Origin: Candidatus Eiseniibacteriota bacterium
Lineage (GTDB): Bacteria; Eisenbacteria; RBG-16-71-46; JABDJR01
Assembly (NCBI GenBank): GCA_963783375.1
Contig: CAWANH010000028.1
Location: 832,001-896,000, forward strand
Direction of reading: 5' to 3'
Length of the DNA: 64,000 nt
Shown piece after piece: positions 42,561-63,389 of the stretch; position 1 is the stretch's first letter, and every line of letters begins with the position of its first letter. Position numbers and translations under genes: made by a program. The notes below the pieces were generated by a model, which saw only the letters and a program-made list of their open reading frames with translations, did not search any database and was not told the DNA's origin.

Positions 42561-42563
42561 GCG

Positions 42564-44019: not shown

Positions 44020-44032
44020 CCGCGCGTTACCC

Positions 44033-45469: not shown

Positions 45470-45553
45470 GGCGCCCCCTCCTTCCCCTCGTCGCGGACAC
45501 TCCCGGAAGGGGACGCTAGCACCCCGAGGGGGGCCGCGGGTAGCGCGAGGTTG

Positions 45554-45970: not shown

Positions 45971-46202
45971 GGGGACCTCCCTTCGATCTGGGTTGGGGGG
46001 ATGCCGATTCCCGATCCTATCATATTCCCGGCCCCCCCCGCCGTTCCCGCTTGTAGCCGTTCGCCGGGGCTGCTTACAATCAGGAAAGACCGAGTTCGGG
46101 CGGAATCCCCGGTAGCGGGGCGTTCCCGAGCGGTCGAGACGCCCCCGGGTGTCCGGCCCAGATTCGGCCTCCTGCGCCAATCAGAAAGGGAGGACCGTGA
46201 TC

Positions 46203-46676
46203 ATGGCCATCATCGCGAGCAGCCTCAGGCAGTACCTGGACGAGCGCAAGGTCAAGTACGAGACCCTTCATCACCGGCGCGACTACACGGCCCAGGAAAC
46301 CGCGGCGGACACCGGCACCCCCGGCCGGGAGTTCGCCAAGGTCGTCATGATGAAGACCGACAAGCGGTATCTCATGGCCGTCCTGCCCGCCCATCACCGG
46401 GTGAACATGGCGAAGCTCAAAGCCGTGCTCGGCTCCGACGACCTTCGTCTGGGCACCGAGGACGAGATCGCCAGCATCTGTCCGGACTGCTCGGTGGGAG
46501 CCGAGCATCCGTTCGGGAACCTCTACGAGATTCCGGTCTACGTCAGCAAGGATCTCGCCGACGACGAGTGGATCACCTTCAACGCGGGCACCCACGAGGA
46601 CGTCGTGCGCATGCGCTACGACGACTACCAGCGACTCGTGCAACCCCGGGTGGTGGACTTCTCGATCCGGCCGTGA
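46203..46676 (+). CDS. YbaK/aminoacyl-tRNA editing family protein
   Basis: YTAQETA, FAKVV, CSVGAEHPFG, FNAGTH. Confidence 0.9.
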   Translation: MAIIASSLRQYLDERKVKYETLHHRRDYTAQETAADTGTPGREFAKVVMMKTDKRYLMAVLPAHHRVNMAKLKAVLGSDDLRLGTEDEIASICPDCSVGAEHPFGNLYEIPVYVSKDLADDEWITFNAGTHEDVVRMRYDDYQRLVQPRVVDFSIRP

Positions 46677-46716
46677 AACGCCGCCGGATTGCGTGCATGC
46701 CTTCTGCTACGGAGCG

Positions 46717-47822
46717 CTAGGCGGTCGGCCTCCCGTCACGGGGGGTCCGGCCGCGGGGCGGCGGGGCCCGGTCGGGGGAGGCGGACGGACCGGCGGACAA
46801 CCGCCGCCGGCCGGCGAGCCGCGCCACGCCGGTCACCCCGAGCCCGATCATGAGAAGCGCGACCGGCCAGGCGTCGAGTCCCGACCAGAAGGAGCTCGTT
46901 CGCCGGTACTCGTCGTCGGTCGCGGCGCGGGTCAGGAACACGGAGCCGTCCATGGGGTCATCGGGGCCGAAGATCCGGTCCAGCCGGGTCACGAACCGGC
47001 CGGGGGCGATCAGCGCCCCCAATTCGGGGTAGCGCGCGGCCACCGCCGAGGCCTCGGAGCGGTTCACCGCGTTGGCGTAGACCGTGGTGAACCCGGGAAT
47101 CGTCGCGCGGTGACCGTCGACCACGAAGAACGCCATGGGGAGCCACTCCGCCCGATGGATGGAGAGGATCGGCAGCGGAACCTCGAGGGTGTCGGCGGCG
47201 TAGGTGAACCGCACCGGATCCACGTTCACGTCCACCTGGTCGCCGAGTTCGGCCCGCGCGGTATCGAGTTTCATGGCGGTGAAGATCCACCCGCGCGCGA
47301 CGTAGGGCGCGAACTTCAGCTCGTCCTCCGGTGACAGGCTGAACCCGTTCGAGTTCAGCCAGGCGCTCAGGCCGACGGATCGCCGGCGGAGAGGATGGTG
47401 GCGTCGAAGGCCCCCACCGCGAGACGGCCGATGATGTCGACCGTCGTCTCCCCCGCCCGCGGGTTGGGCATAGACCGATGTATGCCGCAGCCCAGGTCTC
47501 CCGGCGCCCGGTCGGACGGGGCCGGCGCGGTGAGCGCGAACATCCGGTCCAGATCCGCCGTATGCGGGTTCCAGATCGGGGATGGACGGGGTCGGCACGA
47601 TCAGCCCCCACTCCGAAGCGTTCCCCGCCACCCGGATGTTGGGAATCAGCTGGATCTTCCCGCCGCCCGGTCCATCACCACGACGTTGAGCTGGCCCATC
47701 GACTGCAGCTCACAGTCCACGCAATACACGGGGATGCACATGGCCTGCGCCAGGTCCGCGGACGGCAACCGGGCGGCCGCGACCAGGAGGATCAGGAGGA
47801 CGAGGTGACGGTTCATGGTCAT
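46717..47822 (-). CDS. DUF2330-like secreted protein with C-terminal TM anchor (frameshifted)
   Basis: Signal peptide, WGLIVPTP, VGAFDATIL, LSAWLNSNGF, PYVARGWIFTAMKL spread over several frames. Confidence 0.7.
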
Positions 47823-48427
47823 CTGACCGTGACGCTCAGCCCGAGTTGTACGAGCCAGCCGTCGTAGTTGATGTCCCCGGAGCCGCCGGAATAGTGAAGG
47901 TCCCCCACGAGCGAAAGCCGCTGGCGCGCCCAGATCGAGAGCGTGGGCGAGAGCGTGATCTCGGGCGGAGTCGATCAACCCCCCGATGGTGGGAGCACGC
48001 CGGGCGACGCCGGAGCGGTCGGTGAACCCGGTCAGAACGGTTTGGCCCCCGAGGCCCAGGTAGAGGGCCACGGGGACCCCGACCCGCTCGGGTACCAGGT
48101 CGGCCTGGACGGCCAGAATGATGGGGAGCACCCAGAACTTCGACTCCGGCCGCTGGAAGGTGGGGTCGGCCTGGACCTGGTCCGCGGTGGCCCAGAGATA
48201 GTCCGCCTCAGGAGGAAACGGCTCCGCTCCGGGACGGGGGACGCTGTAGCCCAGCTCAAGATCCGGCGGTGCTGAATGGGTTTGATGGGCGGAGTCGAGT
48301 TCGACTGGAATCCGCCCCCCAGTTCGATGGAGTGGGCCTCGGTCGGGGGGGCGATGAGGGTCAGGGAGGCGGCGAGGATCGAAACCAGGCCCCCGACCGT
48401 CACGCCGGAGAACAGGGAGCGCGTCAC
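47819..48427 (-). CDS. Secreted beta-barrel-like hypothetical protein (frameshifted)
   Basis: GAAAGGAG SD, signal peptide, strands such as LYLGLGG and WLVQLGLSVTVR across frames; ATGA overlap with next gene. Confidence 0.6.
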
Positions 48428-48534
48428 GCCGGTACTCCTTTCGAGGGGAGGAGAAGGCCGGGAAAGAAGCTCGGGTTCGGTGGTTCAGACCCCGAAGGCG
48501 ACCGCTCGGTTCCCGCGGGCGCTGGACAAAAAAT

Positions 48535-48672
48535 TGGCGGCACGGGACGAGGTCAGTGATCCGGCCCACGAACGCGGGAGTTTTTCCCCCAATGAGTCCC
48601 GCCGACCGGAGTCGGCGAAGGCCCAAAGACTCGCCGCGTCGTTGCCAAGCTCAAGGCTCGACCGTGCCGCCA
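48535..48672 (-). ncRNA. Candidate structured RNA or 5' leader (138-nt rod)
   Basis: 11-bp closing stem, nested helices, apical CGCCGAC-UCCG-GUCGGCG, followed by ATTTTTT on the minus strand. Confidence 0.5.
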
Positions 48673-48981
48673 TCGTCGTCTCTCTCGATGCGCACCGTCT
48701 CTCTGTCGCGCTACTAACAATTCCTATACGATTTTTTCCAGGTCTGCATCCACCGACTTCACTTTTTCAAAACATTTTTGGGTGAAACCCCGCTGGATCC
48801 CCAAAACCACCTCAGTCGTAATAGCTTATAGCAAACCATGAAGAGCCCCTGTTCCCTTCCCCGTTCTCCTCGATCGCCACGTCTGTAACCGACTATTTCA
48901 GTTTGTTTTCACTGAAACCAGGATTCCGGGGAGGTCCCGGCCGCGTGGCTCCCACTATGCCTCTCTTTTCCACGCAGGTCA

Positions 48982-48997
48982 AGCGATTTGTGTGCCA
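48982..48997 (-). promoter_or_regulatory. Possible sigma-54 promoter
   Basis: TGGCACACAAATCGCT (GG-N10-GC) on the minus strand; -12 element imperfect. Confidence 0.4.
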
Positions 48998-49213
48998 GCA
49001 CCCTCTTTGTTAGACGGCTCGAACGGCGCCTTTCCCGACTCCGGTCCGAGATAACCGGAACTCGTCCGGATTTCCCGACCGCTGAGCCCGTAGCTCTCAC
49101 TCGCACAACGAGTTTTGGGTTGCAGTTTGGCGGCGCGGAGCTACACTGGCTTCCGCGCTTGGATTGTCCCCCCGTCCGCCGGTCGCCGAAGTGAATGGCG
49201 CGCGAACCCAAAT

Positions 49214-50588
49214 ATGAACGACCCACCCGTCCTCCTGATCGCCCTCGCCGCCCTGGTCATCGGGGCTCTTCTCGCCTTCCCCATGACCTCCCTGCGGGCG
49301 CGCTCGCGCCCGAACGGTTCCGGCTGTCCACCGCCGAGAAGCGCTCGCCGGCGCCGAGGCCTCGGCGAGAGCGAGCACCGGCGCCGGGAGGAACTCGAAA
49401 CCGAGTTCCGCAGCACGGCCGAGGCCCGCGCCGAGTTGGACCGCCGCCTGGCCACCGCCCTCTCCCAACTGGAGAACGCAAAAACCCAGGTCATCGAACA
49501 GCAAAGATTCATCGAAAGCTCGCGCCGGGACCTCCAGAACGCCTTCAAGGCCCTGGCCGGGGCGGCCCTGGAGGGGAACACGAAGCAGTTCCTGGAGCTG
49601 GCCCAGCAGCGGTTCGAGAAGACCGAGGCCGCGGCACGGGCAGAGCTGGAGAAGCGGAAGCAGGCCATCGAGGAGCTGCTGGCGCCGCTCCGAGAGACCC
49701 TGGGGAAGCTGGGGACCCGGACCGGGGAGCTGGAGGTGAAGCGGGAGGGGGCGTACAAGAAGCTGCTGGAGCGGCTGCAGGGACTCTCGGAGCTGACGTC
49801 ATCGCTGCAGGAGAAGACCACGTCCCTGGCCACCGCGCTCCGCGGGTCCCAGGTGCGGGGGCGCTGGGGCGAGATCGCGCTCAGGAACGTGGCCGAGCTG
49901 GCCGGCATGACCGAGCACTGCGACTTCGAGGAACAGGAGACGCTGGAGGAGGGGCGGCCGGCCGGACATGACGGTGCGGCTCCCGGGGGGCGCTTCATCG
50001 CCGTGGACGCCAAGGCGCCCCTGGCCGCCTACCTGGAGGCGGTGGAAGCGGGGGCGGACGAGGCCGCGCGGGAGGCGGCGCTGGACCGCCACGTGAAGGC
50101 GCTCCGCTCGCACATCCGCCCGCTGGCCGCCCGGGAGTACCCGGGCGCCCTGGCCGGGGCGGTGGACTTGACGGTGCTGTTCCTTCCCGGGGACCCCTTC
50201 CTGGCCGCGGCCTTCGGCCGGGCTCCGGACCTCCAGGTGGAGGCGCTCCGGTCCAAGGTCCTGGTGGCCACCCCGACCACCCTGGTGGCGCTCCTGCGAA
50301 CGGTGGCCATCTACTGGCAGCAGCGGCCCTGGCCGAGAACGCCGAGACCATCGCCGCCGCCGCGCGCGACCTCTACGACCGGGCGGCGATCTTCGGGGAG
50401 CACCTGGGCAGGGTGGGAAGGGGCTGTCCACGGCGGTGGGCGCCTACAATGACGCGGTGGGCTCCTTCGAGCACCGGCTGATGCCGATGGCGGGGAAGCT
50501 GGAGGCGATGAAGGCCACCGACGGGGCCAAGCGCCGGATCGAGGGGGCGGCGGGGATGGTGGAGGAGGGACCGGTGAGGGAGCGGTGA
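49214..50588 (+). CDS. rmuC: DNA recombination protein RmuC (frameshifted)
   Basis: N-terminal TM, coiled coil, RGRWGE, VDAKAP, LFLPGD, ATPTTLVALL; C-terminus continues in other frames. Confidence 0.9.
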
Positions 50589-50836
50589 GAAAGCGGCGGG
50601 GACATCTGTCACGAGATCGAGGCGCTGAGGTATGACCCGCCCTTCAATCGAGGCCGACAGCCCGAGACCGCGCTGATCCTAGACTTTCAAACAAGAGAGG
50701 AGGCCGGGTCGCGAGGCCTGCCGGCGAGGGCCCTCGGCGCCGAAGTCATCGGCCTCGAACACCCGGTGAATCCGATACTGGACTTCCCCCTGGTACGCGG
50801 GCGCCCGAAGAAATCCCTGCGCCGGCCCCTTTTTCC

Positions 50837-50865
50837 TTGACGAATACCAGTCATACGGTTAGTAT
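50837..50865 (+). promoter_or_regulatory. Sigma-70 promoter upstream of HNH gene
   Basis: TTGACG-N17-TAGTAT. Confidence 0.6.
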
Positions 50866-50907
50866 GTCCGACGTGGACCGGCTCCCCCCGGCGCGAAGGA
50901 TGGGATC

Positions 50908-53292
50908 ATGGAACTGGCTGGTGTGGTTGACATTGCATCTCCGGAGAGCCTCCCGGAACCCCGGTTCGGGGATCGGCTGGACGGCCTGTTCGGACCGGAG
51001 GCGGCTTACCCGGCCCGGGTTCTCCGGAGGGAGCGGGAAGAGCAGCGCCGCCGGGCTCGCGAACGAGTCCGGGAACCAGGCTCCAGCGGGAAGGGACCGG
51101 GCGCGCACCCGTGTCAAGTGCCGGCAGCTCGCCTGGCGCCTGCTCCACGCCGTCCGCGAGGCCCAGGCGGTCAGCCGCCGGCTGGAGGTTGCCCAGGGCG
51201 CGGCGCTCGGTGGGCTGCGCTCGGGCGACCGGTACCGGGATCTCGGCCATGTCCGGTTCGCCGATTCTGCCGGGAAGCGCTTCAGCTTCATCCCCGACCG
51301 CCCGTCGCCGGGTTGCAGTGCAGGACATCCTGGACCGGGTTCCCGCGGCGAGGCCCGCGTATCTCGAAGGGCGCGTAGATGCCAGCAAACTCCTGGCCCT
51401 CCGGCCGGTTCTCAACCCCGAGAACGCCCCGGTCTGGCTTGCCCTCGGCACGAAGCTCACCGTGCGCCGACTCGCGGCACGGACGGCGGAGACCGGCTCC
51501 GCTCCCGCCACGGCCCCCGACGATCTTGATGAGCCCAACCGAGGGAGGATTGCTTTTCCCGCGCCCCAGGCCGTCGGGTTCGCCTTCGAACATGCTCTCG
51601 AAACCGCCCAGCGGGTGCTCGGCTGGGATGCTCCACGCGACGAGTGCCTGGAGGCGATGCTGATGGAGTCGGATTCGTCGCTTCCCTGGCTCGCGGCGCC
51701 CCCGGAGGAGTCCGAGGCGGATCCGGCCGCCGCCGCCGCCCCGCACGATCGGAAACGGAAGGGCTCGGAGCGGGAGGTGACGGTCGGCGGCCTGGGCCCA
51801 GGCCGGGCGGCTCCCCTGGGCGGATCGCGTGGCCGGTCACGCCTCCCGGGCGCGACGTTCCCGTGCGCCGGGGGAGCCTCCCCCCGGCGGCCCGGGCGGA
51901 GCGCGACCCTGGTCGCCCTCCTATCACCGATGGGATTACAAGCGGGCCAAGAACACGTTGAGGGCCCTGGAGCGCAGGCTTCGACGCATCCATCGGCTGA
52001 CCCGGGAGACCGGCCCGTGCGCGGGGAGCGCCGTGCCCGCAGCGGACCCGGAGGGTGGACGGTTCCCGGTGCCGGCGCGGGCGCTTCTCGATCGGTACCG
52101 GGCTCTCGAAGGCGAGGTTCGGCCGCTCTTCGCGCTCCAGGCCCGCGCGCTGGTGCATCTCGATACCCTGGATGCCCCGGCCCTCGTCGGTCTCCCGCAC
52201 CTGGGGGAACTGGGCGCGCGTCTCCTCGGGCTCTCGGAGCGCGCCACCTGGGATCGGTTTCACGCTGGCTTCGCCTTCCAGTACGGCCGACTCCTCGCCG
52301 ATCGGTACGTCCGCGGCGAGGTCGGGCTGGGCCACGTGCTGCCCCTGGCGGGACGAGGGGACCTGGACACCGGGCCATGATCGAACGGGCCCGCTCGGTC
52401 ACCTATCGCCAGTTCCGGCGGGAGACTGCGCTTCCTTGGGCGGCTGAGCCTCGTCGGGTTCCGATGGACGTCCTTCTCCCGGGGTGATCACCGACCCCGC
52501 GGTCGAAGGCCGGCTCCAAAGGCGGCTCGCCCGGGCCGGTTGGTCGACCACAGACATTGAGCGCCGCCTGGACGAGCGGGGGCTCGGTCTCGCCCTCGGG
52601 GTCTTCCCTGGACCCGGCCGAGAACCCCCTCCGGATGGCGCGGCTGGAAGCACTCCTGGACCTCGCGATCCTGGCCACCTGCCGGGAGCCTGACGAGGCC
52701 GAGGAGCTGCTTCGCGGCCGGAAAACGTTGTCCGCCCCCGGCCGCCACCACCGCGTGGTGGTCTGGGCCCGTCCCGGGATTCGTGCCCGCTGGGAGCGGG
52801 CGTGCCGGGCGGTTCGACGGCGGGACGGACGGCTGCCCGACTGGGCGGCGGCCGTGGTGGTGTCCTGGGAGGCGCTGGATCAGTGGACGCACCTGGATCC
52901 CGGCCGCCTCCCCACCGAACGACGGACCCTGGAGCGTGACGGCTGGAGGTGCCGGGTTCCGGGCTGCGGGGCGCGCCGAAACCTCGAGGTCCACCACATC
53001 GTATTCCGCTCCCGTGGCGGTTCGAACGCGTCCTGGAACCTCGTCACGCTCTGCCACGCCCATCATCATCACGCGCTTCACCGAGGCACCCTCCGCGTGA
53101 CCGGCCGGGCGCCCTGCGCGCTTGACCTGGGAGATCGGCTGTTCCCCGGATGCCGCGCCGCTCTGGACCTACCGTGGCGAACGGCTCGTGCGCCGTCCGG
53201 TCAGGGGCGGATCGCGCATGCCGCCCGGGCGAACTCATCCCCGCGCTCCGTCTCCCCCCCGCCGGGCTCGCCCACCGGGCCGCGCGATGTAG
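50908..53292 (+). pseudogene. Large HNH endonuclease-domain protein (DUF222-like architecture), multiply frameshifted
   Basis: ERDGWRCRVPGC...LEVHHIVFRSRGGSN...NLVTLCHAHH; upstream coding-like segments in several frames; boundaries approximate. Confidence 0.7.
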
Positions 53293-53307
53293 GCTTCTGT
53301 CACTCCG

Positions 53308-54217
53308 GTGACCCGAAATCCGAGTCCGAGGCTCGGCCCGCAATCCCGGACCGAATCCCGAGTCCGAAACCTGATCCGAATCCGAATCCCGCGAGACCCG
53401 AACCCAACCGAGAGGAGTCCCCATACCGGTGCGCGCTTCGATCCCCCACTTTCCGGTCCTGCCGCTTTCGTCTCCGTGCTTCTGGCCGCCCTGCTGTTGG
53501 GCGCCATGCCCCGTGCCGCCCAGGCCCAGATCCTGAACACCCTCCGGGGGTTCAAGGAGAACGAGCCGGGGTGGAGCGGGATCATGGACGCTTCCTTCAG
53601 CGCCACCGGCGGAAACACCGAGGTTCTCTCCCTCGCCGGGAGCGGCCAGGTTCAGTACCGGGTCGCCCGGGAACGGTTCCGACTTCATCGCCAGCGGCGC
53701 CCGGAAGACATCCCGCGGCGCGGCCATCGAGGAGCAGAGCGCGGCTCACCTGCGCCACAACCACCGGGTGAGTTCCTGGTTGAGCTCGGTGGCCTTCGTC
53801 CAGCACCAACGAAACCCGTTCCAGCGGCTCGAGACCCGGTTTCTCTTCGGGCTCGGCGCCCGGTTCGACGTGATCCGGGAAACGTCCTGGCGGCTGTCTC
53901 TCGGCGCCACCCCCATGCTCGAGCTCGAGAAGATCAAGAATCAGTCCGGGACCGACGCCGACTCCCGCATCTCCACCTTCGCGGTGATCGACGGCCGGCT
54001 GAACGACCTGGTGACCCTTCAGCTGACCGGCTTCGTCCAGCCCCGCATCTCCGACTTCGGCGATCTGCGAGCCATGACCACCGGCGGGGTCCGGGTGAAG
54101 CTCGGAGGGGCGCTCTCGCTCACCGTGGCCTCGGACGTGGAGATCGACACCCGGCCGCCGGCCCGGGTGAAGAAGACCGACTGGGAAGTGACCACCGGAC
54201 TGGGGATTTCGCTCTAG
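53308..54217 (+). CDS. DUF481-like outer-membrane beta-barrel (frameshifted, start uncertain)
   Basis: Signal peptide then QILNTL...FSATGGNT...; continues HLRHN...FVQPRISDFGD...TTGLGISL in another frame. Confidence 0.7.
53312..53412. repeat. Degenerate hexamer tandem repeats (TCCGAR/CCCGAR)
   Basis: ...ATCCGAGTCCGAG...CCCGAGTCCGAAACCTGATCCGAATCCGAATCCCG... Confidence 0.55.
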
Positions 54218-54314
54218 CCCGCCCTGGCGGTCAGGTGCCCGTCGCCGCAGCGGCTTCATGAATAGGTGGGGCCGGCCCCGGTGTCGCCCGCCCCCCGGCG
54301 GACTCCGCCCCCCC

Positions 54315-54348
54315 AAAAAAAGCGGCGGACGCCGATGTGGCGTCCGCC
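54315..54348 (-). terminator. Intrinsic terminator of DUF4382 gene
   Basis: GGCGGACGCC/GGCGTCCGCC stem followed by GC-T7 on the minus strand. Confidence 0.8.
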
Positions 54349-54409
54349 TCGGGGAAAACGGGGGATGTCCGTTTGACCCCGTCAACTCCAGTGTCGTCTC
54401 GATCGGGGG

Positions 54410-55282
54410 CTAACCCTTGTGGCCGTTGCCCCCTCCATTGCCCCCGCCGTTCCCGTGCTGGGCCCCGTTGTTCCCGCCGTCGTCATGCCCGAATTGGGAG
54501 TCATGGTCGTGGTCGTGGGAACCCCACGCCCCGTGGAGCACCGGCTTGATCTTGAAGTTCCCGCTTCCGGGAGGCGCCTCCACCACCGACTTGTCCAGAT
54601 CGAACACGATCACGATGTCGGTCACCTGACCGTCGGACACGGTGAAGGGGAAGATGACCTTGAGCATGTCGTTGTTTCCGGGAACGTCCGCCCTGATCGA
54701 GTCTCCGGCCTGGGTGACCACCCACCCGTCGGCCACATGGAGGGCCAGGTGGCTGTAATCGCCCTGGGGAAGCTCGAGGGTCCCCAGGAACTCGGAGAGC
54801 GTGGTGTCGAGGCCGGCCAGGTTGACCGTGACCGGGTCGGTGAGGACCTCGACGGCGCCGCAGTCGGCGTGGGTGCTGTCGTCCCCGCCCCCGGTCGAGT
54901 CATGGTCGTCGTGGAGAAAGCTCAACCCGTTCCACCGTTTGGCGGCGGACGTGGAGTCCTCCTCCTCACCGGTGGTGTCGTCGTCCGCGCTGTCCTCGCA
55001 AGCCGGGTAGACCCGGATGGAATCGAAGGTGATCCAGACCGCCGAGATGGGGGTGCGGTCGGAACCGAGTGGGTGGACGCCCATCGTGGCCGCGGCGTTC
55101 ACCGAGCCCACCGTGTTCAGGGAAACCGCGAGAAGTCCCATCCCCGAACCGGCGGGGGGAGGGGAGAACACGTTCCCCGGAGCGGCGGGGTTCGAACTCG
55201 AGCCGCAGCCGACCAGGCCGGCCCCGACCGCGAGAGTTAATGCGCTGGCAATCAATAGCTTACCAAGAAATCCCGATTTCAC
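54410..55282 (-). CDS. DUF4382-like lipoprotein
   Basis: AAGGAGG SD, GTG start, lipobox LVGC, AVWITFDSI, LPQGDY, FDLDKSV...IKPVL; acidic/His-rich inserts and Gly-Asn tail. Confidence 0.8.
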   Translation of the reverse strand: MKSGFLGKLLIASALTLAVGAGLVGCGSSSNPAAPGNVFSPPPAGSGMGLLAVSLNTVGSVNAAATMGVHPLGSDRTPISAVWITFDSIRVYPACEDSADDDTTGEEEDSTSAAKRWNGLSFLHDDHDSTGGGDDSTHADCGAVEVLTDPVTVNLAGLDTTLSEFLGTLELPQGDYSHLALHVADGWVVTQAGDSIRADVPGNNDMLKVIFPFTVSDGQVTDIVIVFDLDKSVVEAPPGSGNFKIKPVLHGAWGSHDHDHDSQFGHDDGGNNGAQHGNGGGNGGGNGHKG

Positions 55283-55378
55283 GAATGCACCCTCCTTGTA
55301 TCCAGGGGCGTGCAAAGCCAACCGATCCGCATCGCGTTCGTCAGCTTCGATATGGGGACGGCCCGGACGGTCTCAGGC

Positions 55379-55407
55379 TTGGACGGTATCGTCACCCAGA
55401 GGTTACA
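55379..55407 (-). promoter_or_regulatory. ECF sigma promoter candidate (DUF4382 gene)
   Basis: TGTAACC-N14-CCGTCCAA. Confidence 0.8.
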
Positions 55408-55581
55408 CCACAACCTGCCCCGGCGTTCCAAGTCCTTGAAAATGGTACAATTCACCCATCGGTGGAACCCTCCCCGAACCTCCGCGGTTCCAGTTCAGGG
55501 AACCGCGACCGGCGGGACCGCCCGTCCGGCCGACCTATGTCCCCGGGGATTTCCGCTTTAGCCCCGCCCGCGCGTCGCACC

Positions 55582-55610
55582 TGTAACCACGGGATCATCG
55601 AGCCGTCAAA
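55582..55610 (+). promoter_or_regulatory. ECF sigma promoter candidate (autoregulatory)
   Basis: TGTAACC-N14-CCGTCAAA. Confidence 0.8.
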
Positions 55611-55695
55611 GAAGACGAAGACAGACGGCTCTGGACCAGATCGTCCCCCCGGTCTAAGCGAGCGAGCATCGTTCGAACCGCGATCCGGGGGGGAC

Positions 55696-56340
55696 GTGAG
55701 CGAGCAAGGCCGTCCATTGACGGAGCATGATCAGGGGCGACGGAAGCCGAGAGGCATCGCCCCGCTTGAGATCGATGAAGAGCGAGATCTGCTGGAGCGG
55801 ACCCGGCGGGGCGACACGGCTGCCTACACCCGCCTGGTTCGCCTGCATCAGGATCTCATCTTCGGCCTGGTCTCCCGGATGGTGCGGGACGCGCATCTCG
55901 CGGAGGAAGTGACCCAGGACGCCTTTCTCAAGGCCTACCGGGCGCTCGACACCTTCCGCGGGGATGCCCGGTTCGCCACGTGGCTCTACCGGATTGCGGT
56001 GAACCTGTGCCGGGACCATAGCGGGAACCCGACTTCGAGGCTCCGCCGGATGGAGACCAGCCTGGAGGGGGCCGGGGCGATGGGAGTGGACCCTCCCGCC
56101 CCGCACCCCCGGCCCGACGAGGCTCTGGAGGCCGGGCAGGTGGCCGATGGGTTCCAGGCCGAGCTGGACGCTCTCGACCCGATCTATCGCGAGGCTTTCC
56201 TGCTCCGGCATCAGGAAGGCCTGGGTTACGAGGAAATCGCCGGGATCCTCGAGATCTCGGTGAGCAACGCCAAGGTGCGGGTGCATAGGGCCCGGGAGTC
56301 CATTCTGGGCGCGCTCCGGCGCCGAGGTTTCGAGGTCTAG
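55696..56340 (+). CDS. ECF RNA polymerase sigma factor
   Basis: AEEVTQDAFLKAY...FATWLYRIAVN (region 2); LGYEEIA...AKVRVHRAR (region 4). Confidence 0.94.
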   Translation: MSEQGRPLTEHDQGRRKPRGIAPLEIDEERDLLERTRRGDTAAYTRLVRLHQDLIFGLVSRMVRDAHLAEEVTQDAFLKAYRALDTFRGDARFATWLYRIAVNLCRDHSGNPTSRLRRMETSLEGAGAMGVDPPAPHPRPDEALEAGQVADGFQAELDALDPIYREAFLLRHQEGLGYEEIAGILEISVSNAKVRVHRARESILGALRRRGFEV

Positions 56341-56372
56341 GCCCCCTCGGGGGGCGGGACATCGCAGACATC

Positions 56373-57122
56373 ATGAACGACGAATTCGAAAGCGACCGGG
56401 TGAATCCCCGGTTTCATGAGTACCTGGATGGGGAGCCGCCTCCGTCGAACCCTGCTGCCTTCGAGGGGGACCTGCGGACCGGGAAGCTCCTGCGGAACCA
56501 GTTGAACACCATGTGCCGCATCGAGGCCTGGTTCCGGTCTACCCGCTCGCGGGCCCCATCCTCTCTGGCCCGGGCCGTGGAACGCGCCTTGGAGGTCGAG
56601 CGCGCCGTCCCGGCCCGGGCCAGATCCTCTTCCCGGCTCCGGTTGCTTCCATCGCTTCCGGGCCAGGGGTGGCTCCGGTGGGCCTGGGTGCCCGCCGCCG
56701 TTGCCGCCCTGATCGTGGTGCTGGTTGCCATCCCCCAGGATCGCGCAAAGAACCGCTCCGGCGACACCCGGTCGCCGGAGCGCGCGATCTTCTCCCAGCC
56801 CACCTCCGGCGGCGATCTGGCCGCCGGCCTGGACGGGAACGAAAAGCCTCCGAACGCCTCCTCCGGTGCGGTATCCTATAGGTTCGTCATACGGGCTCAG
56901 GATGCCTCTCAAGTCTGCCTTGCCGGGGACTTCAACCAATGGAGGGTGTGTGAGGCGCCGATGCGGCGCGTCGGGGAGGACCTCTGGTCTCTGTCCGTGA
57001 ATCTCCAGCCGGGTCGCTACGAGTACATGTTCGTGGTGGACGGCCGATGGGTGACCGATCCCAACGCCATCGCCCACGCCGACGATGGTTTCGGGAATCG
57101 GAACGCCGTGCTGCTCCTCTAG
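56373..57122 (+). CDS. Putative anti-sigma factor with TM helix and C-terminal CBM48-like (AMPK/isoamylase early-set) domain
   Basis: EYLDGE N-terminus, TM, VCLAGDFNQW...LQPGRYEYMFVVDGRWVTDP...DDGFGNRNAVL. Confidence 0.88.
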   Translation: MNDEFESDRVNPRFHEYLDGEPPPSNPAAFEGDLRTGKLLRNQLNTMCRIEAWFRSTRSRAPSSLARAVERALEVERAVPARARSSSRLRLLPSLPGQGWLRWAWVPAAVAALIVVLVAIPQDRAKNRSGDTRSPERAIFSQPTSGGDLAAGLDGNEKPPNASSGAVSYRFVIRAQDASQVCLAGDFNQWRVCEAPMRRVGEDLWSLSVNLQPGRYEYMFVVDGRWVTDPNAIAHADDGFGNRNAVLLL

Positions 57123-58471
57123 TCCCCGCCGGGCTCGTTTTCCTCGCCCTGGCCGTTTCGGGACTCCTGTCCGCCGGTCCCGCCGCCGCCGCTCCCGAAA
57201 CCCGCCTGAGCCTCGACCTTGCCGCCGGCCACGACGACCAGGTCCTGGCCAGCCAGGACCTCGGCGTGATCTCGCCGGTATCCGAGGGCTACTTCACCGG
57301 GACGAGCCGGCTGTTCCTTCGATGGGCCTCCGCCCGAAGCTCCCGGCGCCTGGATCTGACCGCCCGGGCCTCGGGAACGAGCTACGGCTCCAAGGTGAGC
57401 GGCAACGACTCGGATCTTCGTCTGGCCGCCCGTTATCGGCAGGGCCTGGGTTCGAGACTGGCGCTGGACACCGCCGTCGCCGGTTGGCGATATCGCCGTG
57501 AAGAGTCGGCCGTCTTCGATCTCGATCTCCTTCGAGGAGAGACCCGGTTGGGATGGACCCCCGGGCCGGGCTGGCTCGTCAGCCTAGGCGCCCGCTACAA
57601 CCACAGCGCGTATCCGCACCGATATCTTCCCGCCGACTCAACCCGGCATGAGGTGCAGCGGCCCTTCGACGTCGTTTTCGGGGTGGTGCGCGGCGTCGGC
57701 CGGACCGGGTACCTGAGCGCGGAGGCGAGCTACCGGTCCGCCTCCTCCAATGCCCCCCGCTCCCGCTACCTGGGGCCGATCTTCGTCCTCCGGTCGGGGA
57801 CGCAGATCTTCCTGCGGATCTCCCTTTCCGGCTACGTCGTTTACGGGAACCGGGACTACCGGGATTCGGGGGTGCTCCTCGCGGTCGGCGGTACGGCCGG
57901 GGACTCCGTGGGCACCCGTCGGGACGAGGCCTGGCAATTCGGCCTGGCCATGGAACGGCCGGTGGCGAATCGGGTGCGGCTTTTCCTGGATGGGAACTAC
58001 CTGATCCAGGACTCCAACGCCTCGTTCGCCGACTTCAACCAGGCCCAGGTCTCGATCGGGATCTCGGTGGATCTGGTGACGATCGGGAGAGCCAGGGACA
58101 GGGAGCTGCCGGAATCGGTCAGCTCACCCACCGCTCCGCTCATCTCCGGAGACCGGGCCCGTTTCCGGGTCCTCGCTCCCGGAGCGCAATCGGTCTCGGT
58201 GGTGGGGGGGTTCAACGGGTGGGATCCCGAGCGGAACCCGCTTTCGGGCCCGGACCGGGACGGGCTATGGGAGACGTCCCTGACCCTCCACCCGGGGATC
58301 TGGCGGTACGCCTTCGTGATTGACGGCGTCTGGACGGTCCCGCCGGATGCCCCTCGCTACGAGGCCGATGGCTTCGGAGGCCAAAACGGGGTGATCGACG
58401 TCACCGGGGGCGGGTCCGACGCGCCTGTAACCGGGGACGACTCCACCCGTCCAAGGCAGCAAAGACGGTGA
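57047..58471 (+). CDS. Outer-membrane beta-barrel fused to C-terminal CBM48-like domain
   Basis: Signal-like segment, about 300 aa of amphipathic strands, then VSVVGGFNGW...YAFVIDG...DGFGGQNGV; start uncertain. Confidence 0.8.
   Translation: MGDRSQRHRPRRRWFRESERRAAPLVPAGLVFLALAVSGLLSAGPAAAAPETRLSLDLAAGHDDQVLASQDLGVISPVSEGYFTGTSRLFLRWASARSSRRLDLTARASGTSYGSKVSGNDSDLRLAARYRQGLGSRLALDTAVAGWRYRREESAVFDLDLLRGETRLGWTPGPGWLVSLGARYNHSAYPHRYLPADSTRHEVQRPFDVVFGVVRGVGRTGYLSAEASYRSASSNAPRSRYLGPIFVLRSGTQIFLRISLSGYVVYGNRDYRDSGVLLAVGGTAGDSVGTRRDEAWQFGLAMERPVANRVRLFLDGNYLIQDSNASFADFNQAQVSIGISVDLVTIGRARDRELPESVSSPTAPLISGDRARFRVLAPGAQSVSVVGGFNGWDPERNPLSGPDRDGLWETSLTLHPGIWRYAFVIDGVWTVPPDAPRYEADGFGGQNGVIDVTGGGSDAPVTGDDSTRPRQQRR
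58426..58454 (+). promoter_or_regulatory. ECF sigma promoter candidate (internal, for 58573 gene)
   Basis: TGTAACC-N14-CCGTCCAA. Confidence 0.75.
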
Positions 58472-58572
58472 CATGAAAGGAGTTGGCCGAACCCGGCGCA
58501 GTGCGCTAACCTTTAGCTGCCGTTGGTGTTGGCGCCGCCGGGCTATGTGCTGGCTCTGAAGGGAATACCGCC

Positions 58573-59595
58573 ATGAACCTGAAGAGGTCCTCTTTCTCCA
58601 TGAATGGCCGAAGGCTGGTCGGCTTGGCCGCGACCGCTTTGCTGGTTCTCGGATCGGCTCCGGCCCTGGCCGGGGACGGCGCCCCGGGCGGCGCGCCGTC
58701 CGGGGCGGCCCATGATCTGGCGCTCAGCCGAGCCCTGGCTCTCCATGCCGCCTCCCCCGAGGCCCCGACCTTGAACGCCGCGGTCAAGGATGCGCTCGAC
58801 GCCGGGGTTGGGCCCGACCTTCTGGCCGAGGTCCTGACCCGCTCCGCCGAAGAGGCGCTTCCCGACTCCGACCTGCTCCTCATCGTGGATCATGCCACCC
58901 GGCTTGCCCGTCGGGATCTCCCGGCGGGGCCGGTGGTCAGCCGCTACCTTCAGGGATTGTCCAAGGGGGTGCCATTTCCCCGCATCCAGGCGGTGACCGA
59001 TGAACTGGACACCCGCCTGGCCACGGCGGCCCGACGGGTCGACGCCTCCCTACCCACCCCCACCGACGCGGCGCTGCGCCGGGCCCGCCTTGCCGCCATC
59101 GACTACGGAGCCTACGCCTTGAGCGTCGGCGTCTCGGAGGCTGCCTTCGACCACTCCCTGGGACTGGTGGCCGATGAACCGCGCCCCCTGGAGGCGCTGC
59201 AATCCCCGCTTCTCACCATGGGCGTTCTGGTCTCCTCCGGGGTGGCTTCGGCCAAGTCGATGGAAGTGGTGGACATGGCCTGGAAGCGCGGCTTCCGCGG
59301 TGAGAACCTGGAGCGGCTGGGGAAGGCAGTGGGTCGCCTCAGCCGGGAGGAGGGCTCTTCCTCCAATTTCATGGGTCGGATACTGGCCATGATCGACGAT
59401 TCCTCCCAGGAGCGGGTATTCCAGGGGCTCGATGAATTGATCGGCCGTACCGAAGGGGGGCGCGGCAACACCACCATCGGCCCCGGCGAGGACCCCGGAA
59501 ACCGCCGGGTCCCGGGAGACCGGCCCATCAATCCCGGCCCCGGGAAGCACGAGGGCCAGCAGGACCAGCCCAGAGACGGGAGCGGAACCAACTGA
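58573..59595 (+). CDS. Secreted alpha-helical hypothetical protein
   Basis: Signal peptide (APALA), helical body (QGLSKGVP), Gly/Pro-rich tail. Confidence 0.8.
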   Translation: MNLKRSSFSMNGRRLVGLAATALLVLGSAPALAGDGAPGGAPSGAAHDLALSRALALHAASPEAPTLNAAVKDALDAGVGPDLLAEVLTRSAEEALPDSDLLLIVDHATRLARRDLPAGPVVSRYLQGLSKGVPFPRIQAVTDELDTRLATAARRVDASLPTPTDAALRRARLAAIDYGAYALSVGVSEAAFDHSLGLVADEPRPLEALQSPLLTMGVLVSSGVASAKSMEVVDMAWKRGFRGENLERLGKAVGRLSREEGSSSNFMGRILAMIDDSSQERVFQGLDELIGRTEGGRGNTTIGPGEDPGNRRVPGDRPINPGPGKHEGQQDQPRDGSGTN

Positions 59596-59787
59596 TTTGG
59601 GCCGGGATCGCCCGGCTGCCTCGCACGCCATCCCCCCCGGGCGGCCCGTTGATGGGGCCGCCCGATCCTTTTCCGGACCAGCTGAACCCGCTCCGGCACC
59701 GGCCGTCCCCTTGCGGTATGATGCAGATCAGCCGCCTTTCCGGTAGTCCCCGGGGATGAGGGCACCGGGGGCAGGGAGGTAGGGTCG

Positions 59788-60171
59788 TTGCCCACCATTC
59801 TCCTGGTCGAGGATGATCCAGCTGTTCGGAAGATGCTCGAAGTCCTGGTGCGGAGCGCGGGCTACGACGTTCTGATCGCGGCCCGCGGGGACGAGGCGCT
59901 GCGGATCCTGGACCGGGTTTCGCCGGAGATTCCCCCCCCGGTCGATGCCCTGGTCACCGACGTCATCATGCCCGGGGATCTCGACGGCGCCGAACTCGCC
60001 CGCCGCTTCAGGGAACGTTTCCCCGGTCTCGGGGTGGTTTGCACCTCGGGTTTCGTGCGCGATGCTCTCAGCGACACCTCCGAGCTTCCCGAGGGAGCGA
60101 TCTTCCTCCAGAAGCCCTTTTCGGCGGAAGATCTCCTGGATGCCCTGATCCGGGTGATTCCCCATGGCTGA
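59788..60171 (+). CDS. Single-domain response regulator receiver
   Basis: ILLVEDD, TDVIMPG, TSG, LQKPF. Confidence 0.9.
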   Translation: MPTILLVEDDPAVRKMLEVLVRSAGYDVLIAARGDEALRILDRVSPEIPPPVDALVTDVIMPGDLDGAELARRFRERFPGLGVVCTSGFVRDALSDTSELPEGAIFLQKPFSAEDLLDALIRVIPHG

Positions 60172-60378: not shown

Positions 60379-61599
60379 ATGGCCCTAGACGTGATGCTCG
60401 CCCGCGCCCAGTTCCCGGCGCTCTCGAGTGAATGGATCTTCATGGATAACGCCGGCGGGACCCAGGTTCCGCTCCAGGTGGCCGACGCCATGCGCGACTA
60501 CCTGCTTCACACCAACGTGCAGTTGGGGGCGAGCTACGAGGTTTCGAAGAAATCGGGGGAGGCGGTGTGGAATGCTCGCCGGCTGATGGCGGACATGATC
60601 GGAGCCGTGCCCGACGAGATCATCTTCGGGGCCAACACCAGCCAGCTCCTCCGCATGCTGGCCATGGTCCTCTCCACCCGCTGGGAGCCCGAGGACGAGG
60701 TCATCATCTCCCAGGCCGAGCACGAGGCCAACGCCGGCTGCTGGGAGTACCTCGAGCAGTTCGGCATCGTGGTCAAGACCTGGGAGATCGACAAGGAAAG
60801 CTACACCTTCGAGATCGACCGGCTCACCGACCTCCTGTCCGAGCGCACCCGGCTGATCGCCGTTCACCACTCCAGCAACATCCTCGGCAACGTGATGCCG
60901 ATTCGGGACGTGGTGAAGCTGGCCAAGGGCTCGGGAGCGATGGTCGTGGTGGACGGGGTGGGCTACGTCCCGCACCGGGCGGTGGACGTGAGAGACCTGG
61001 ATGTGGACTTCTACGTCTTCTCCAACTACAAGGTTTTCGGCCCCCACATGGGGGTCCTCTATGGCAAGGCCGAGCGGCTGAAGCAGATGCCCCGCTGGAA
61101 CCACTTCTTCATCGGCGAGGACGAGGTTCCGGGGAAGTTCGAGCTGGGGTCGGGCCAGTACGAGGGCGCGGCCAGCCTCCTGGGTCTCGAGAAGTACTTC
61201 CGGGCCCTGGGAAAGGCGTTCACCGCCCCCATCAAGAGCGTGTTCGGCGACGTCTACGAGGACATCCAGGCTCACGAGGGCCGGCTGACCCGCGATCTCC
61301 TGACCTTCCTCAACAAGCACCCCCGGGTCCACGTGGTGGGCGAGTCCGATCCCCGGCGCCTCGAGGATCGCCTCCCCATCGTCTCCTTCGTGGTCGATGA
61401 AGCCGACCCCGAGGAACTGGTACTCGAGGTGGACAAGGCCAAGGTCGGGATCCGCTGGGGTCACTTCTACGCGGTCCGCCTCCTCGACGCTCTGGACCTT
61501 CTCCAGTACAAGGGAGTGGTGCGGGTGAGTCTCGCCCACTACAACACCGAGAACGAGTTGGCGCGGCTCAAGGACGTGCTGGGGCCGCTGATCTCGTAG
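60379..61599 (+). CDS. Cysteine desulfurase-like class V aminotransferase
   Basis: DNAGGTQV, EHEAN, FSNYKVFGPH, RVSLAHYNT. Confidence 0.9.
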   Translation: MALDVMLARAQFPALSSEWIFMDNAGGTQVPLQVADAMRDYLLHTNVQLGASYEVSKKSGEAVWNARRLMADMIGAVPDEIIFGANTSQLLRMLAMVLSTRWEPEDEVIISQAEHEANAGCWEYLEQFGIVVKTWEIDKESYTFEIDRLTDLLSERTRLIAVHHSSNILGNVMPIRDVVKLAKGSGAMVVVDGVGYVPHRAVDVRDLDVDFYVFSNYKVFGPHMGVLYGKAERLKQMPRWNHFFIGEDEVPGKFELGSGQYEGAASLLGLEKYFRALGKAFTAPIKSVFGDVYEDIQAHEGRLTRDLLTFLNKHPRVHVVGESDPRRLEDRLPIVSFVVDEADPEELVLEVDKAKVGIRWGHFYAVRLLDALDLLQYKGVVRVSLAHYNTENELARLKDVLGPLIS

Positions 61600-62309: not shown

Positions 62310-63389
62310 ATGTCCGAATCCCCCCCTTCTCCTCCCTTCGAGGTTCGCTCCGGGGAGCTGGAGTGGCGGCTCTGGCTCGACGATCAGGGCGCTCTCGAAG
62401 CGCCGGACTGGGTGACCGTGCTTTCCCGCGAGGCGACGACGCGCATCGCGGACGCCGATCCCGGGAGCGCGATCCGGCTCCTGGAGCTCGCGGTGAGCCC
62501 GGCGAGCCCGGTATTCGACGGTCTCACCGGGCCGCGGGCCCGGGAGCTGGCCGGCCGCCTGGAGCGGGCCTGGAAGACCGCGGGATCGGAAGACGAGGCT
62601 GCGTTCGGTCCATGGGAGGATCGGGCGGGGGCGATTCTCGCGGTGCTCCATCGCTGGGTGCGGTACCGGCGGCATCGCCGCCGGGAACAGGCCGAGGCCT
62701 CGGCGGCTTCCCCCGCCGAAGAACGGAGCCGGGACGACCTCGACGGGTTCTATCGGGACTGGGTTCTCATTCCCCTCCGCGAGAACTTCCTCCGGGTCCT
62801 GGAGGATCGGGGCATCACCCGCCGGCAGTTCTGCGCGTCCCTGGGCATGAGCGAGGCGTACCTCTCCCAGATCCTGAACGGGCGGCGGAACCCCTCGCTC
62901 CGCAAGCTCTCCGAGATCTCCCGCGCCCTGGAGGTGGACCTGGGGCGGCTGTTCGCGGTGCGCGCCCACCGCGGCTCGGACTCCCCCTGGAAGAGAGGGA
63001 GTCATCCCGAGCCGGGGGACACCGGGAACTGGTTTCCCGGCAAGGTGTCGCGGCCCTACGCGGCCCTGGAGGCGCATTACCGCCTGATCTTCTATCCCGG
63101 GCCCGATCTTCCGGGGGAGAAGGTCCTGGCCCGGAGTTTTCTGATCGTGGATCCGGTCCCCGGCGAGCTCGCGTTCGAAGGACGCTACGCCCTTCAGGAC
63201 GAGAACGAAGTGGTCATGGTGGCCTCCTACGCGGGGACGAGTGGTGGTGGGAAGCGGCAACGCTTCATGGCATCGGACGGACGAACCCTGGAGGTGCCGG
63301 TATCCTCGCCCCGCGCGGGCGAGGAGAAGGTTCCGAGGGGGGAGTCGCATTTCCTGGGCCGGGTGACCGGGACCCTGGTGGAGTTTTGA
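62310..63389 (+). CDS. Protein with central XRE-type HTH and unknown flanking domains
   Basis: GITRRQFCASLGMSEAYLSQILNGRRNPSLRKLSEISRALEV. Confidence 0.8.
   Translation: MSESPPSPPFEVRSGELEWRLWLDDQGALEAPDWVTVLSREATTRIADADPGSAIRLLELAVSPASPVFDGLTGPRARELAGRLERAWKTAGSEDEAAFGPWEDRAGAILAVLHRWVRYRRHRRREQAEASAASPAEERSRDDLDGFYRDWVLIPLRENFLRVLEDRGITRRQFCASLGMSEAYLSQILNGRRNPSLRKLSEISRALEVDLGRLFAVRAHRGSDSPWKRGSHPEPGDTGNWFPGKVSRPYAALEAHYRLIFYPGPDLPGEKVLARSFLIVDPVPGELAFEGRYALQDENEVVMVASYAGTSGGGKRQRFMASDGRTLEVPVSSPRAGEEKVPRGESHFLGRVTGTLVEF

Follow-up and report, generated by a model that had tools for sequence, protein, structure and literature searches.

In Acetivibrio (Clostridium) thermocellum the anti-sigma factor of the SigI/RsgI systems carries an extracytoplasmic carbohydrate-binding module, and these Gram-positive systems have a SigI-type sigma factor, use other CBM families and control genes for polysaccharide-degrading enzymes. 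TonB-dependent signalling transducers are plugged, 22-stranded barrels with an N-terminal signalling domain, and the anti-sigma partners RseB and MucB have a β-rich, LolA-like fold. RseB is a co-encoded periplasmic protein that sits on the periplasmic part of its anti-sigma factor and has to be released before cleavage, as described in PMC8103513. An anti-sigma factor with a CBM48 is itself already in print as ECF278s1, the entry for which describes, at +1, a single-pass anti-sigma factor with an AMPK glycogen-recognition domain in the periplasm (Casas-Pastor et al. 2021, PMC7826278, Supplementary Text S2). The promoter given there is GTGAC (−35)/GTATA (−10), the range comprises Desulfovibrio, Syntrophobacter and Chloracidobacterium, and the idea of glycogen sensing is put forward in that entry only as a guess of one paragraph (PMC7826278).

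The window analysed here is a stretch of 64,000 nucleotides from a Candidatus Eiseniibacteriota genome, and it contains a real and conserved five-gene envelope module consisting of an ECF sigma factor, an anti-sigma-like protein, a barrel, a helical protein and a DUF4382 lipoprotein. We assign a probability of roughly 0.5 to the reading that this module works as a cap-release envelope switch, with the helical protein capping the CBM48 of the anti-sigma factor. The features are as follows.

54410..55282, minus strand: DUF4382 lipoprotein, 290 aa from GTG; Pfam PF14321, E 5e-16
55379..55407, minus strand: ECF-type promoter motif TGTAAC-N16-CGTCCAA, directed towards the lipoprotein gene
55582..55610, plus strand: ECF-type promoter motif TGTAAC-N16-CGTCAAA, before the sigma gene
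55696..56340, plus strand: ECF sigma factor, 214 aa from GTG, with sigma2 and sigma4
56373..57122, plus strand: putative anti-sigma factor, 249 aa; AMPK1_CBM 4.8e-12; membrane helix from hydropathy
57047..58471, plus strand: barrel–CBM48 fusion, 474 aa, start uncertain; barrel about 57197-58084, CBM48 58130-58402
58426..58454, plus strand: ECF-type promoter motif TGTAAC-N16-CGTCCAA, within the 3' tail of the barrel gene and facing the helical gene
58573..59595, plus strand: secreted helical protein, 340 aa, with a signal peptide

The gene content proposed in the first-pass annotation is borne out, as Pfam domains and structure models match the claimed architecture. The sigma factor matches Sigma70_r2 (1.9e-18) and Sigma70_r4_2 (9.4e-16) in Pfam, with TIGR02937 above its cut-off, and the lack of a Pfam match for sigma3 places it among the ECF (group 4) factors. 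The anti-sigma-like protein consists of a cytoplasmic N-domain, a membrane helix (103-121), a linker and a C-terminal CBM48 (162-249); as for the cytoplasmic helical domain by which class I anti-sigma factors bind the sigma factor, it has neither an HxxxCxxC nor a Pfam anti-sigma match, and an N-terminal stretch of the (Y/H)LDGE type recurs among its relatives. From its ATG at 57047 the barrel gene would share 76 nt with the anti-sigma gene, and a start codon at this position is not common to all relatives. The lipoprotein has a lipobox, LVGC, at residue 26 and a tail rich in Gly, Asn and His, and its start is more likely to be the GTG at 55282, which has AAGGAGG upstream, than the TTG at 55321; its gene is a variable output gene, found in 8 of the 40 loci chosen through the helical gene. 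Terminator-like hairpins at 54324-54348 (minus) and 59638-59664 (plus) match the gene ends, but hairpins of this kind numbered four against 3.3 in shuffles. One RNA run contained 6% of the sequence words. Contigs of a relative, one of which begins at 55629, 19 nt past the −10 element, span parts of four genes; contigs can show neither a start nor transcription.

The three motif sites noted earlier at 55407 (minus), 55582 (plus) and 58426 (plus) were recovered, and the literal TGTAACC-N14-CCGTC(C/A)AA fits all of them. The pattern TGTAAC-N16-CGTCNAA occurs three times in the window, whereas 100 shuffles averaged 0.02 occurrences and none of them gave three, and a promoter scan of the sequence found no sigma-70 promoter. 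The motif precedes the sigma gene in 17 of 18 relatives and the helical gene in 18 of 19, in the latter case at three differing positions relative to the barrel stop codon, and the divergent copy facing the lipoprotein gene is also kept. The constancy of these positions among relatives, although the spacers have diverged, supports the claim of an autoregulated ECF module with envelope outputs, in which the motif at 55582 is likely to be autoregulatory. The genome-wide scan proposed to define a regulon confirmed these local sites and gave next to nothing beyond them: the strict motif has four copies in the 4.73 Mb genome, the fourth lying in a duplicate of the module region on contig C26, and a large distal regulon was not supported, since of 55 matches in ten related genomes 28 lie at the module and 27 elsewhere, compared with 26 for a reversed-pattern control. 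Cross-comparison of the 27 distal sites in these ten genomes found no downstream homologue in common. The exception is an orthologous secreted S8 protease, which is preceded by the motif in three of four same-genus genomes, that of the window included; the site is missing in one other-genus orthologue, the only one with upstream DNA in view. The statement that the outputs are not amylases holds, with a motif site upstream of none of the genome's 10 α-amylase matches.

The first-pass annotation had treated the helical protein as an output, a view that its constancy does not support as stated. Its gene is present in 65 of 69 loci with a sigma factor and a CBM anti-sigma factor, the four misses ending at a contig edge, so that it accompanies the anti-sigma factor in 65/65 uncut loci; conversely, when loci were picked by the helical gene, 36 of 40 had sigma and CBM genes, the other four being cut by contig ends. 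The model (pLDDT 95) is a solenoid of 13 helices with no strands. P117 and K131 (codon 58963-58965) are invariant by alignment columns, and of 67 sequences 58 have K at residue 131 and the other 9 have R. No Pfam family scores above its cut-off for this protein, no PDB entry matches it in sequence, and the fold search gave no match at E<=0.001; the best fold match, a designed repeat protein (Z 8.3, rmsd 4.5, 146 aligned), lies in the range common to helical proteins. Matches in the Atlas are all below 0.9 and are all hypothetical proteins, and a longer fused form was not seen among 7991 candidates, which is weak evidence. A resemblance to DUF5667 was dropped, as this family was not among the 25/36 families listed for 51 members of the helical family.

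The complex of the helical protein with the CBM48 of the anti-sigma factor was modelled with a score of 0.89, compared with 0.00 for the best of three controls; of 157 solved complexes 116 came up to the mark used, as did 2 of 215 mismatched pairs, a calibration that is rough for alignments made here, and the score expresses model confidence only. At least 98% of contacts are common to the runs, and the partner pLDDT is at least 89. The best modelled contacts join W190 to residues 126-131, and W226 and F240 to K131, and the K131 loop is predicted to sit in the W190/W226/F240 cradle of the CBM48's sugar pocket, the counterpart of which stacks against sugar in AMPK. Conservation in the helical protein is higher for interface residues than for the remainder (0.45 versus 0.33), with a p-value that overstates this because the sequences are related. 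Coevolution in the paired alignment, a test of low power, showed no enrichment at the modelled interface and placed no interface pair among the top 20 and six among the top 100, where 3.9 were expected.

Both the anti-sigma-like protein and the barrel end in a Pfam AMPK1_CBM/CBM_48 domain. Aligned to AMPK β and a pullulanase, the residues of the anti-sigma domain are W190, M219, W226, F240, G241 and N244 and those of the barrel domain W392, A422, W429, F443 and N447, so that the aromatic cradle, equivalent to W100, W133, L146, G147 and N150 of AMPK, is kept, with F at the L146 position. In AMPK β1 the substitution K126Q abolishes glycogen binding, as reported in PMC6274970. The glycogen-binding lysine is replaced in the window by M219 and A422, and K is found at this position in none of 36 anti-sigma and none of 19 barrel domains from loci chosen through the helical gene without selection on the CBM, whereas it is found in 7/7 domains of the genome's secreted amylase and LacI-linked sugar-uptake locus. 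The occurrence of Met at this position in 73 of 74 anti-sigma domains was discarded as evidence because YEYMFVVD had served as one of the search patterns, and the invariant E/Y/M columns of the alignment filtered on this motif (A4) result from selection. Met also occurs here in seven CBM48s outside sigma modules, five of which lie immediately ahead of a branching-enzyme-like gene, and in one of the 12 domains from tandem-CBM proteins; as a sequence feature it does not prove a loss of glucan binding. The barrel domain differs at an interface position, having mostly R where the anti-sigma CBM has E217, and may for this reason be unable to bind the cap.

The barrel was modelled (pLDDT 80) as 14 long strands followed by the CBM, consistent with the proposed outer-membrane barrel fused to a second CBM48; the strand number and the C-terminal position of the CBM48 likewise agree with the proposal that the locus has no TonB-dependent transducer. 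The best folds are CymA, with Z 21.4 and rmsd 3.8 over 274 aligned residues, and OmpG, with Z 19.2 and rmsd 3.6 over 240, at 8-9% identity, and the likeness may reflect strand number only. Among relatives of the barrel, a match at E<=0.1 to BBP2_2 occurs in 10/22 and to SlipAM in 3/22. Slam-like export of the lipoprotein was set aside on the latter count and kept as a minor possibility; the presence of DUF4382 in only 8 of 19 loci with the gene order of the window also counts against it. Over 65 loci the second CBM48 is in a barrel-sized protein in 17, in a lipoprotein-like one in 19, unclear in one and absent from 28, the last nearly all being closely related Gemmatimonadota and thus not independent. 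Judged by this gene content, the barrel is an accessory, and its being replaceable by a lipid anchor or missing argues against both an obligatory import of glucan and an obligatory CBM–CBM contact.

In the proposed mechanism, the single-pass anti-sigma factor would hold the sigma factor (likely), and the secreted helical protein is predicted to cap its periplasmic CBM48 and, by analogy with RseA/RseB, to protect it. Loss of the cap would expose the anti-sigma factor to proteolysis, and site-1/site-2 cleavage would free the sigma factor on the same analogy; M50 and HtrA-type proteases are encoded in the genome. The trigger, to judge from the model, is likely to be the release of the helical plug and not simple starch binding. 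Freed sigma factor would then transcribe its own operon, the lipoprotein gene and, from a separate promoter, extra cap, by which the switch would be reset. The least certain steps are that the outer-membrane-tethered CBM48, having the same cradle, might provide a second dock for the cap, and that the share of cap at the outer versus the inner membrane might report outer-membrane assembly or spacing. The fuller picture, of a starch-binding module turned into a protein socket, a lysine loop of a periplasmic solenoid that mimics sugar and inner- and outer-membrane sockets that compete for the plug, is tentative, and we would sooner bet against it than for it. If true, it would be an undescribed means of measuring envelope integrity, with the socket system used in Ca. 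Eisenbacteria, Gemmatimonadota, Nitrospirota, Acidobacteriota, Myxococcota and Thermodesulfobacteriota.

The α-glucan sensing suggested by the first-pass annotation is weakened by the missing lysine, while a glucan may still compete for the intact cradle. An amended form, in which maltodextrin or a similar glucan, possibly let in by the barrel, displaces the helical cap from the anti-sigma CBM48 and so releases the sigma factor, is rather doubtful in our estimation. The modelled cap sits exactly on the sugar site, which makes competition geometrically natural, a cyclodextrin porin (CymA) is the top fold match of the barrel, Met is shared with domains beside branching-enzyme-like genes, and ECF278s1 was itself proposed as a glycogen sensor (PMC7826278); on the other hand, the lysine is missing in 55/55 domains, the sugar-uptake locus, with a LacI regulator of its own, lacks a motif site as do the α-amylase genes, OmpG scores close to CymA, the barrel is dispensable, and certain CBM48s bind none of the glycans tested in the work reported in PMC8040265.

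That the helical protein is instead an activator, the binding of which promotes anti-sigma cleavage and which is sequestered at rest by the outer-membrane CBM48, would fit a complex model that yields a contact and not its sign, the retention of the cradle in the second CBM48 and the positive feedback that a sigma-type promoter before the helical gene would provide; this is unlikely, given at least 22 loci that have at least 2 kb of downstream room and no second CBM48 for sequestering, and given that the periplasmic anti-sigma partners described, RseB (PMC8103513) and the FoxA signalling domain (PMC11637429), are protective in these accounts. Least probable of all is a CBM–CBM contact across the membranes that keeps the anti-sigma factor stable in the style of cell-surface signalling, with the helical protein only an output: both domains are predicted to be periplasmic, and in FoxA/FoxR an outer-membrane protein domain binds and protects the anti-sigma factor, according to PMC11637429, but it is the second CBM48 that is missing in 28/65 loci and the helical gene in 0/65, and in the model the helical protein occupies the sugar face of the anti-sigma CBM.

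The locus makes the ECF278s1 idea testable, as it offers a promoter that many genomes conserve, a third component that is constant and belongs to no known family, and predictions at the residue level, K131 against W190/W226/F240. If the cap model is true, sugar sensing does not follow from a CBM48 annotation in such signalling proteins, and the periplasmic partners of anti-sigma factors gain a new family. With hardly any distal regulon, the compact sigma/promoter pair is also a candidate for an orthogonal switch.

Focusing on the known systems, the module shares with ECF278s1 the single-pass anti-sigma factor at +1 with a periplasmic AMPK1_CBM, whereas its promoter is TGTAAC/CGTC and not GTGAC/GTATA, its closest named relatives are Ca. 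Eisenbacteria and not the taxa of the published range, and the helical partner, the barrel and the second CBM are not named in the ECF278s1 entry (PMC7826278). Related Thermodesulfobacteriota loci, in which the helical gene is present too, have GT(G/A)AC...GTAT promoters, 4/5 of which agree with the published motif. In quick sigma trees, where these loci served as stand-ins for ECF278 and not as listed members, Eisenbacteria and Thermodesulfobacteriota fall into separate groups with an unresolved backbone, and one clade was not rejected (AU test p 0.62). ECF21 and ECF120, compared by architecture and promoter only, also combine a single-pass anti-sigma factor with an outer-membrane protein at +2 and have similar promoters (GCAACC/CGTCT and TGTAACAAA/TCGTCAT), whereas no CBM48 or helical partner is described in their entries (PMC7826278). 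Unlike in SigI/RsgI, the outputs of the module are not glycoside hydrolases. The FecI/FecR/FecA and FoxI/FoxR/FoxA (ECF243) systems similarly combine a sigma factor and an inner-membrane anti-sigma factor with an outer-membrane barrel that has a periplasmic domain, whereas the barrel of the window has 14 strands, a C-terminal CBM48 in place of the N-terminal signalling domain of Fec and Fox and no TonB-dependent transducer in the locus, and other loci have a lipid anchor in its place or lack it. By analogy, the module likely works like E. coli sigmaE–RseA–RseB, with which it shares an ECF sigma factor, a single-pass anti-sigma factor and a co-encoded periplasmic partner, the binding of the partner being predicted here. 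The partner itself differs from the β-rich RseB/MucB fold in being an all-helical solenoid without a Pfam family that docks, in the model, on a folded CBM48, and the module adds to the sigmaE–RseA–RseB arrangement an outer-membrane-tethered copy of the docking domain.

The module at 54410–59595 encodes a divergent DUF4382 lipoprotein on the minus strand, an ECF sigma factor with Sigma70_r2 and r4_2 domains, an anti-sigma-like protein with a single hydrophobic helix (residues 103–121), a barrel protein and a secreted all-helical protein (58573–59595), the proposed cap and called so below; the C-terminal domains of the anti-sigma-like and barrel proteins both match AMPK1_CBM/CBM_48 in Pfam. The nearest named relatives are Ca. 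Eisenbacteria. The predicted barrel has 14 strands followed by the CBM48, and the helical protein is modelled with 13 helices at a pLDDT of 95. A barrel with an even number of strands leaves its C-terminus in the periplasm, which is where the strand count of the model would place the barrel CBM48. Low-complexity tails rich in Gly, Asn, His and Gln end both the lipoprotein (54410–54500) and the helical protein (59450–59595), and similar tails are seen in relatives, on two further secreted proteins whose genes follow this motif (L136 and L138). The neighbouring genes appear to be unrelated and include a weak HNH match (52557–53771), a stand-alone response regulator (59788–60171), a cysteine desulfurase-like protein with TIGR01976 over the cut-off (60379–61599) and an HTH_3 protein (62310–63389). 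A DUF481 outer-membrane gene (53308–54217) is split over two frames near 53767, and an RmuC match (49115–50452) stops at 221 of the model's 291 positions; both are likely to be assembly frameshifts.

All five genes and three promoter motifs described in the first-pass annotation were recovered from the window sequence in their places, and the pattern TGTAAC-N15-CCGTCNAA has three matches in the window versus 0.02 in shuffles:

55407, minus strand, promoter motif
55582, plus strand, promoter motif
58426, plus strand, promoter motif

The strict motif has four matches in the whole genome, the fourth lying on contig C26, a duplicate of window 42.5–55.5 kb. This contig (19.8 kb) matches 42559–55543 at 84–98% identity with many gaps, ends just past the lipoprotein promoter and probably reflects strain variation or a long-read contig with many errors. 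A profile search with the helical protein against 206 genomes of the phylum gave 44 matches in 42 genomes, and 40 of these loci were fetched; the four set aside were this genome's own two, a near-identical copy and one further locus. By gene order, 19 follow the window (sigma, anti-sigma, barrel, helical), 20 have the order sigma, anti-sigma, helical and, where in view, second CBM48, and one is too short to class. GTAAC-N15-17-CGTC has 50 matches in the 166 kb of the 19 window-order loci and none in the 134 kb of the 20 other-order loci. It is found upstream of sigma in 17 of the 18 window-order loci with sigma in view and directly after the barrel CBM48 in 18 of 19. In eight cases the TAA of this post-barrel motif is the barrel stop codon, in three the site lies within the ORF tail and in seven it falls past the stop; because its position relative to the stop differs, the site is a DNA signal and not a by-product of coding. 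Positions that were not selected for are also kept (all 45 sites have C after CGT, and 43 of the 45 have the final A), although these genomes, being kin, do not count as independent. As a conserved signal the promoter is genuine; its position suggests that it is read by the module's own sigma, and none of 13 genome-wide matrix matches has another ECF gene downstream.

The genome scan that the first-pass annotation had proposed shows a small regulon, with 12 matrix sites of at least 16 bits versus none in 2 Mb of simulated background, four of them belonging to the module or to its duplicate, the other eight lying elsewhere. A single distal target has support, the gene of a secreted S8 protease with an Ig and FlgD-like tail (C28:1304534–1307395). 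Here the motif at C28:1304439 lies 95 nt before the gene; counting this genome, three of four from the genus have it 94–99 nt upstream, and in one its spacer is entirely different. Distal motif matches in ten relatives numbered 27, no excess over the reversed control (26). Across relatives the third local promoter precedes different secreted proteins (DUF4382, DUF5666, a carboxypeptidase-regulatory-like protein and a FlgD-tailed protein), and the local outputs are therefore envelope proteins, as had been anticipated. That they are not amylases also holds: in this genome no matrix site precedes any of the ten alpha-amylase matches or falls within the sugar locus at C28:140–158 kb.

In the alignment to AMPK beta, residues W100, K126, W133, L146 and N150 correspond to W190, M219, W226, F240 and N244 of the anti-sigma CBM48 and to W392, A422, W429, F443 and N447 of the barrel CBM48, where the L146 and N150 equivalents lie beyond the aligned stretch and are presumed from the motif. 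According to PMC6274970, glycogen binding by AMPK beta1 is abolished by W100G and by K126Q. Among loci picked without reference to the CBM, the W100 position is kept in all 36 anti-sigma and 19 barrel domains, and the K126 position is occupied by Met (17), Ser (8), Ala (7), Gly (3) or a gap (1) in the former and by Ala (17), Met (1) or Ile (1) in the latter. Lysine is present there in seven of the 12 CBM48 domains of this genome, four from a secreted amylase and three from the sugar locus. The former (C1:47144–50755) carries its four CBM48 domains in tandem before an alpha-amylase domain; the latter (C28:140000–158000) is likely to be an alpha-glucan uptake locus, with a LacI regulator, a weak FadL-like channel match, a sugar ABC transporter, a pullulanase X25 domain and three lysine-bearing CBM48 proteins, two of them lipoprotein-like in appearance. 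Met also occupies the position in seven CBM48s outside sigma modules, five of them before branching-enzyme-like genes, which weighs against over-reading the loss of K126. These five (L045, L051, L055, L069 and L077) lie directly before those genes in loci without a sigma, and three of them come from records that bear the name Methylomirabilota/NC10.

The helical protein is the constant partner of the system. Sigma and a CBM48 anti-sigma are present in 69 of 80 loci, spanning Eisenbacteria, Gemmatimonadota, Nitrospira, Vicinamibacterales, Myxococcota and Thermodesulfobacteriota, and 65 of the 69 have the helical gene, the four others all ending at contig edges. Among these 65 loci the carrier of the second CBM48 is barrel-sized in 17 (although that of L057 reads as lipoprotein-like), has a lipoprotein-like signal in 19 and is unclear in one; the domain is absent from 28, of which 22, nearly all related Gemmatimonadota, have at least 2 kb of room. 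Since its carrier varies or is absent, the pore is not essential, and what recurs is a second CBM48 tethered in the envelope. This genome has a second such module (C29:1482319–1485479), ordered sigma, anti-sigma, helical and barrel-CBM48, with more degenerate pockets, no TGTAAC motif, and sigma and barrel ORFs frameshifted in the assembly.

The modelled complex of the anti-sigma CBM48 with the helical protein of this locus scored 0.89, versus 0.00 for the best of three controls, against a mark that 116 of 157 solved complexes and two of 215 mismatched pairs attained, counts that apply only approximately given our own alignments. The runs agreed in at least 98% of contacts, with a partner pLDDT of at least 89. 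The score is unlikely to reflect memory of a like complex, because PDB sequence and fold searches turned up no solved structure related to the helical protein. The modelled interface is the sugar face, where W190 touches residues 123–131 and W226 and F240 touch K131. P117 and K131 are the sole invariant columns in 51 helical-protein sequences, and position 131 is Lys or Arg in all 67 sequences; with its own lysine lost, the CBM would have space for this incoming one. A coevolution check between the CBM and the helical protein gave no support. In the barrel CBM48 the cradle W, D and F are kept in 20–23 of 23 sequences, and Arg mostly stands where the anti-sigma has E217.

We propose, with a probability of about one half, that the module is a cap-release switch working like RseA/RseB. 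While the cap is bound, the anti-sigma would remain intact and sigma off; loss of the cap would lead to anti-sigma proteolysis and switch sigma on, and extra cap made from its own promoter would reset the system. The signal would arise in the envelope, where the outer-membrane copy of the socket may compete for the cap. The genome has M50 and HtrA-type proteases, which permits the proteolytic route and falls short of showing it.

The main competing explanation, that a glucan pushes the cap off the CBM48, is less likely. Among fold matches of the barrel, CymA, a cyclodextrin porin, ranks first (Z 21.4, rmsd 3.8, 274 aligned), though OmpG is close behind (Z 19.2), with identity likewise 8–9%. 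That the cap instead activates the system is improbable, and direct contact between the two CBM48 domains, raised in the first-pass annotation, has a slimmer chance still.

As described in PMC7826278, ECF278s1 has an anti-sigma that crosses the membrane once and bears an AMPK glycogen-recognition site in the periplasm, a GTGAC/GTATA promoter and possibly a role in sensing glycogen; the present locus shares this anti-sigma feature, whereas its promoter differs. Given the promoter, and a sigma tree that, with ECF278s1-like loci standing in for members, neither rejects nor establishes one clade (AU p 0.62), the locus is not filed in ECF278 on comparison with the group's description. Four Thermodesulfobacteriota-like loci (L027, L032, L038 and L041) have ECF278s1-like GT(G/A)AC...GTAT promoters; in each the helical gene occurs together with one for a CBM48 lipoprotein, and two have a separate barrel as well. 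A mostly open-access literature on CBM48/glycogen-site anti-sigmas, ECF278, DUF4382 and Eisenbacteria yielded no description of the module. The likeness to RseA/RseB (PMC8103513) would lie in a periplasmic partner on the anti-sigma and its release before proteolysis. The module is real, a variant of the ECF/anti-sigma/periplasmic-partner scheme whose own core is partly published; it adds a well-defined promoter and, as a testable prediction from the model, a CBM48 sugar pocket that a periplasmic protein of a family as yet unnamed plugs with a lysine loop.
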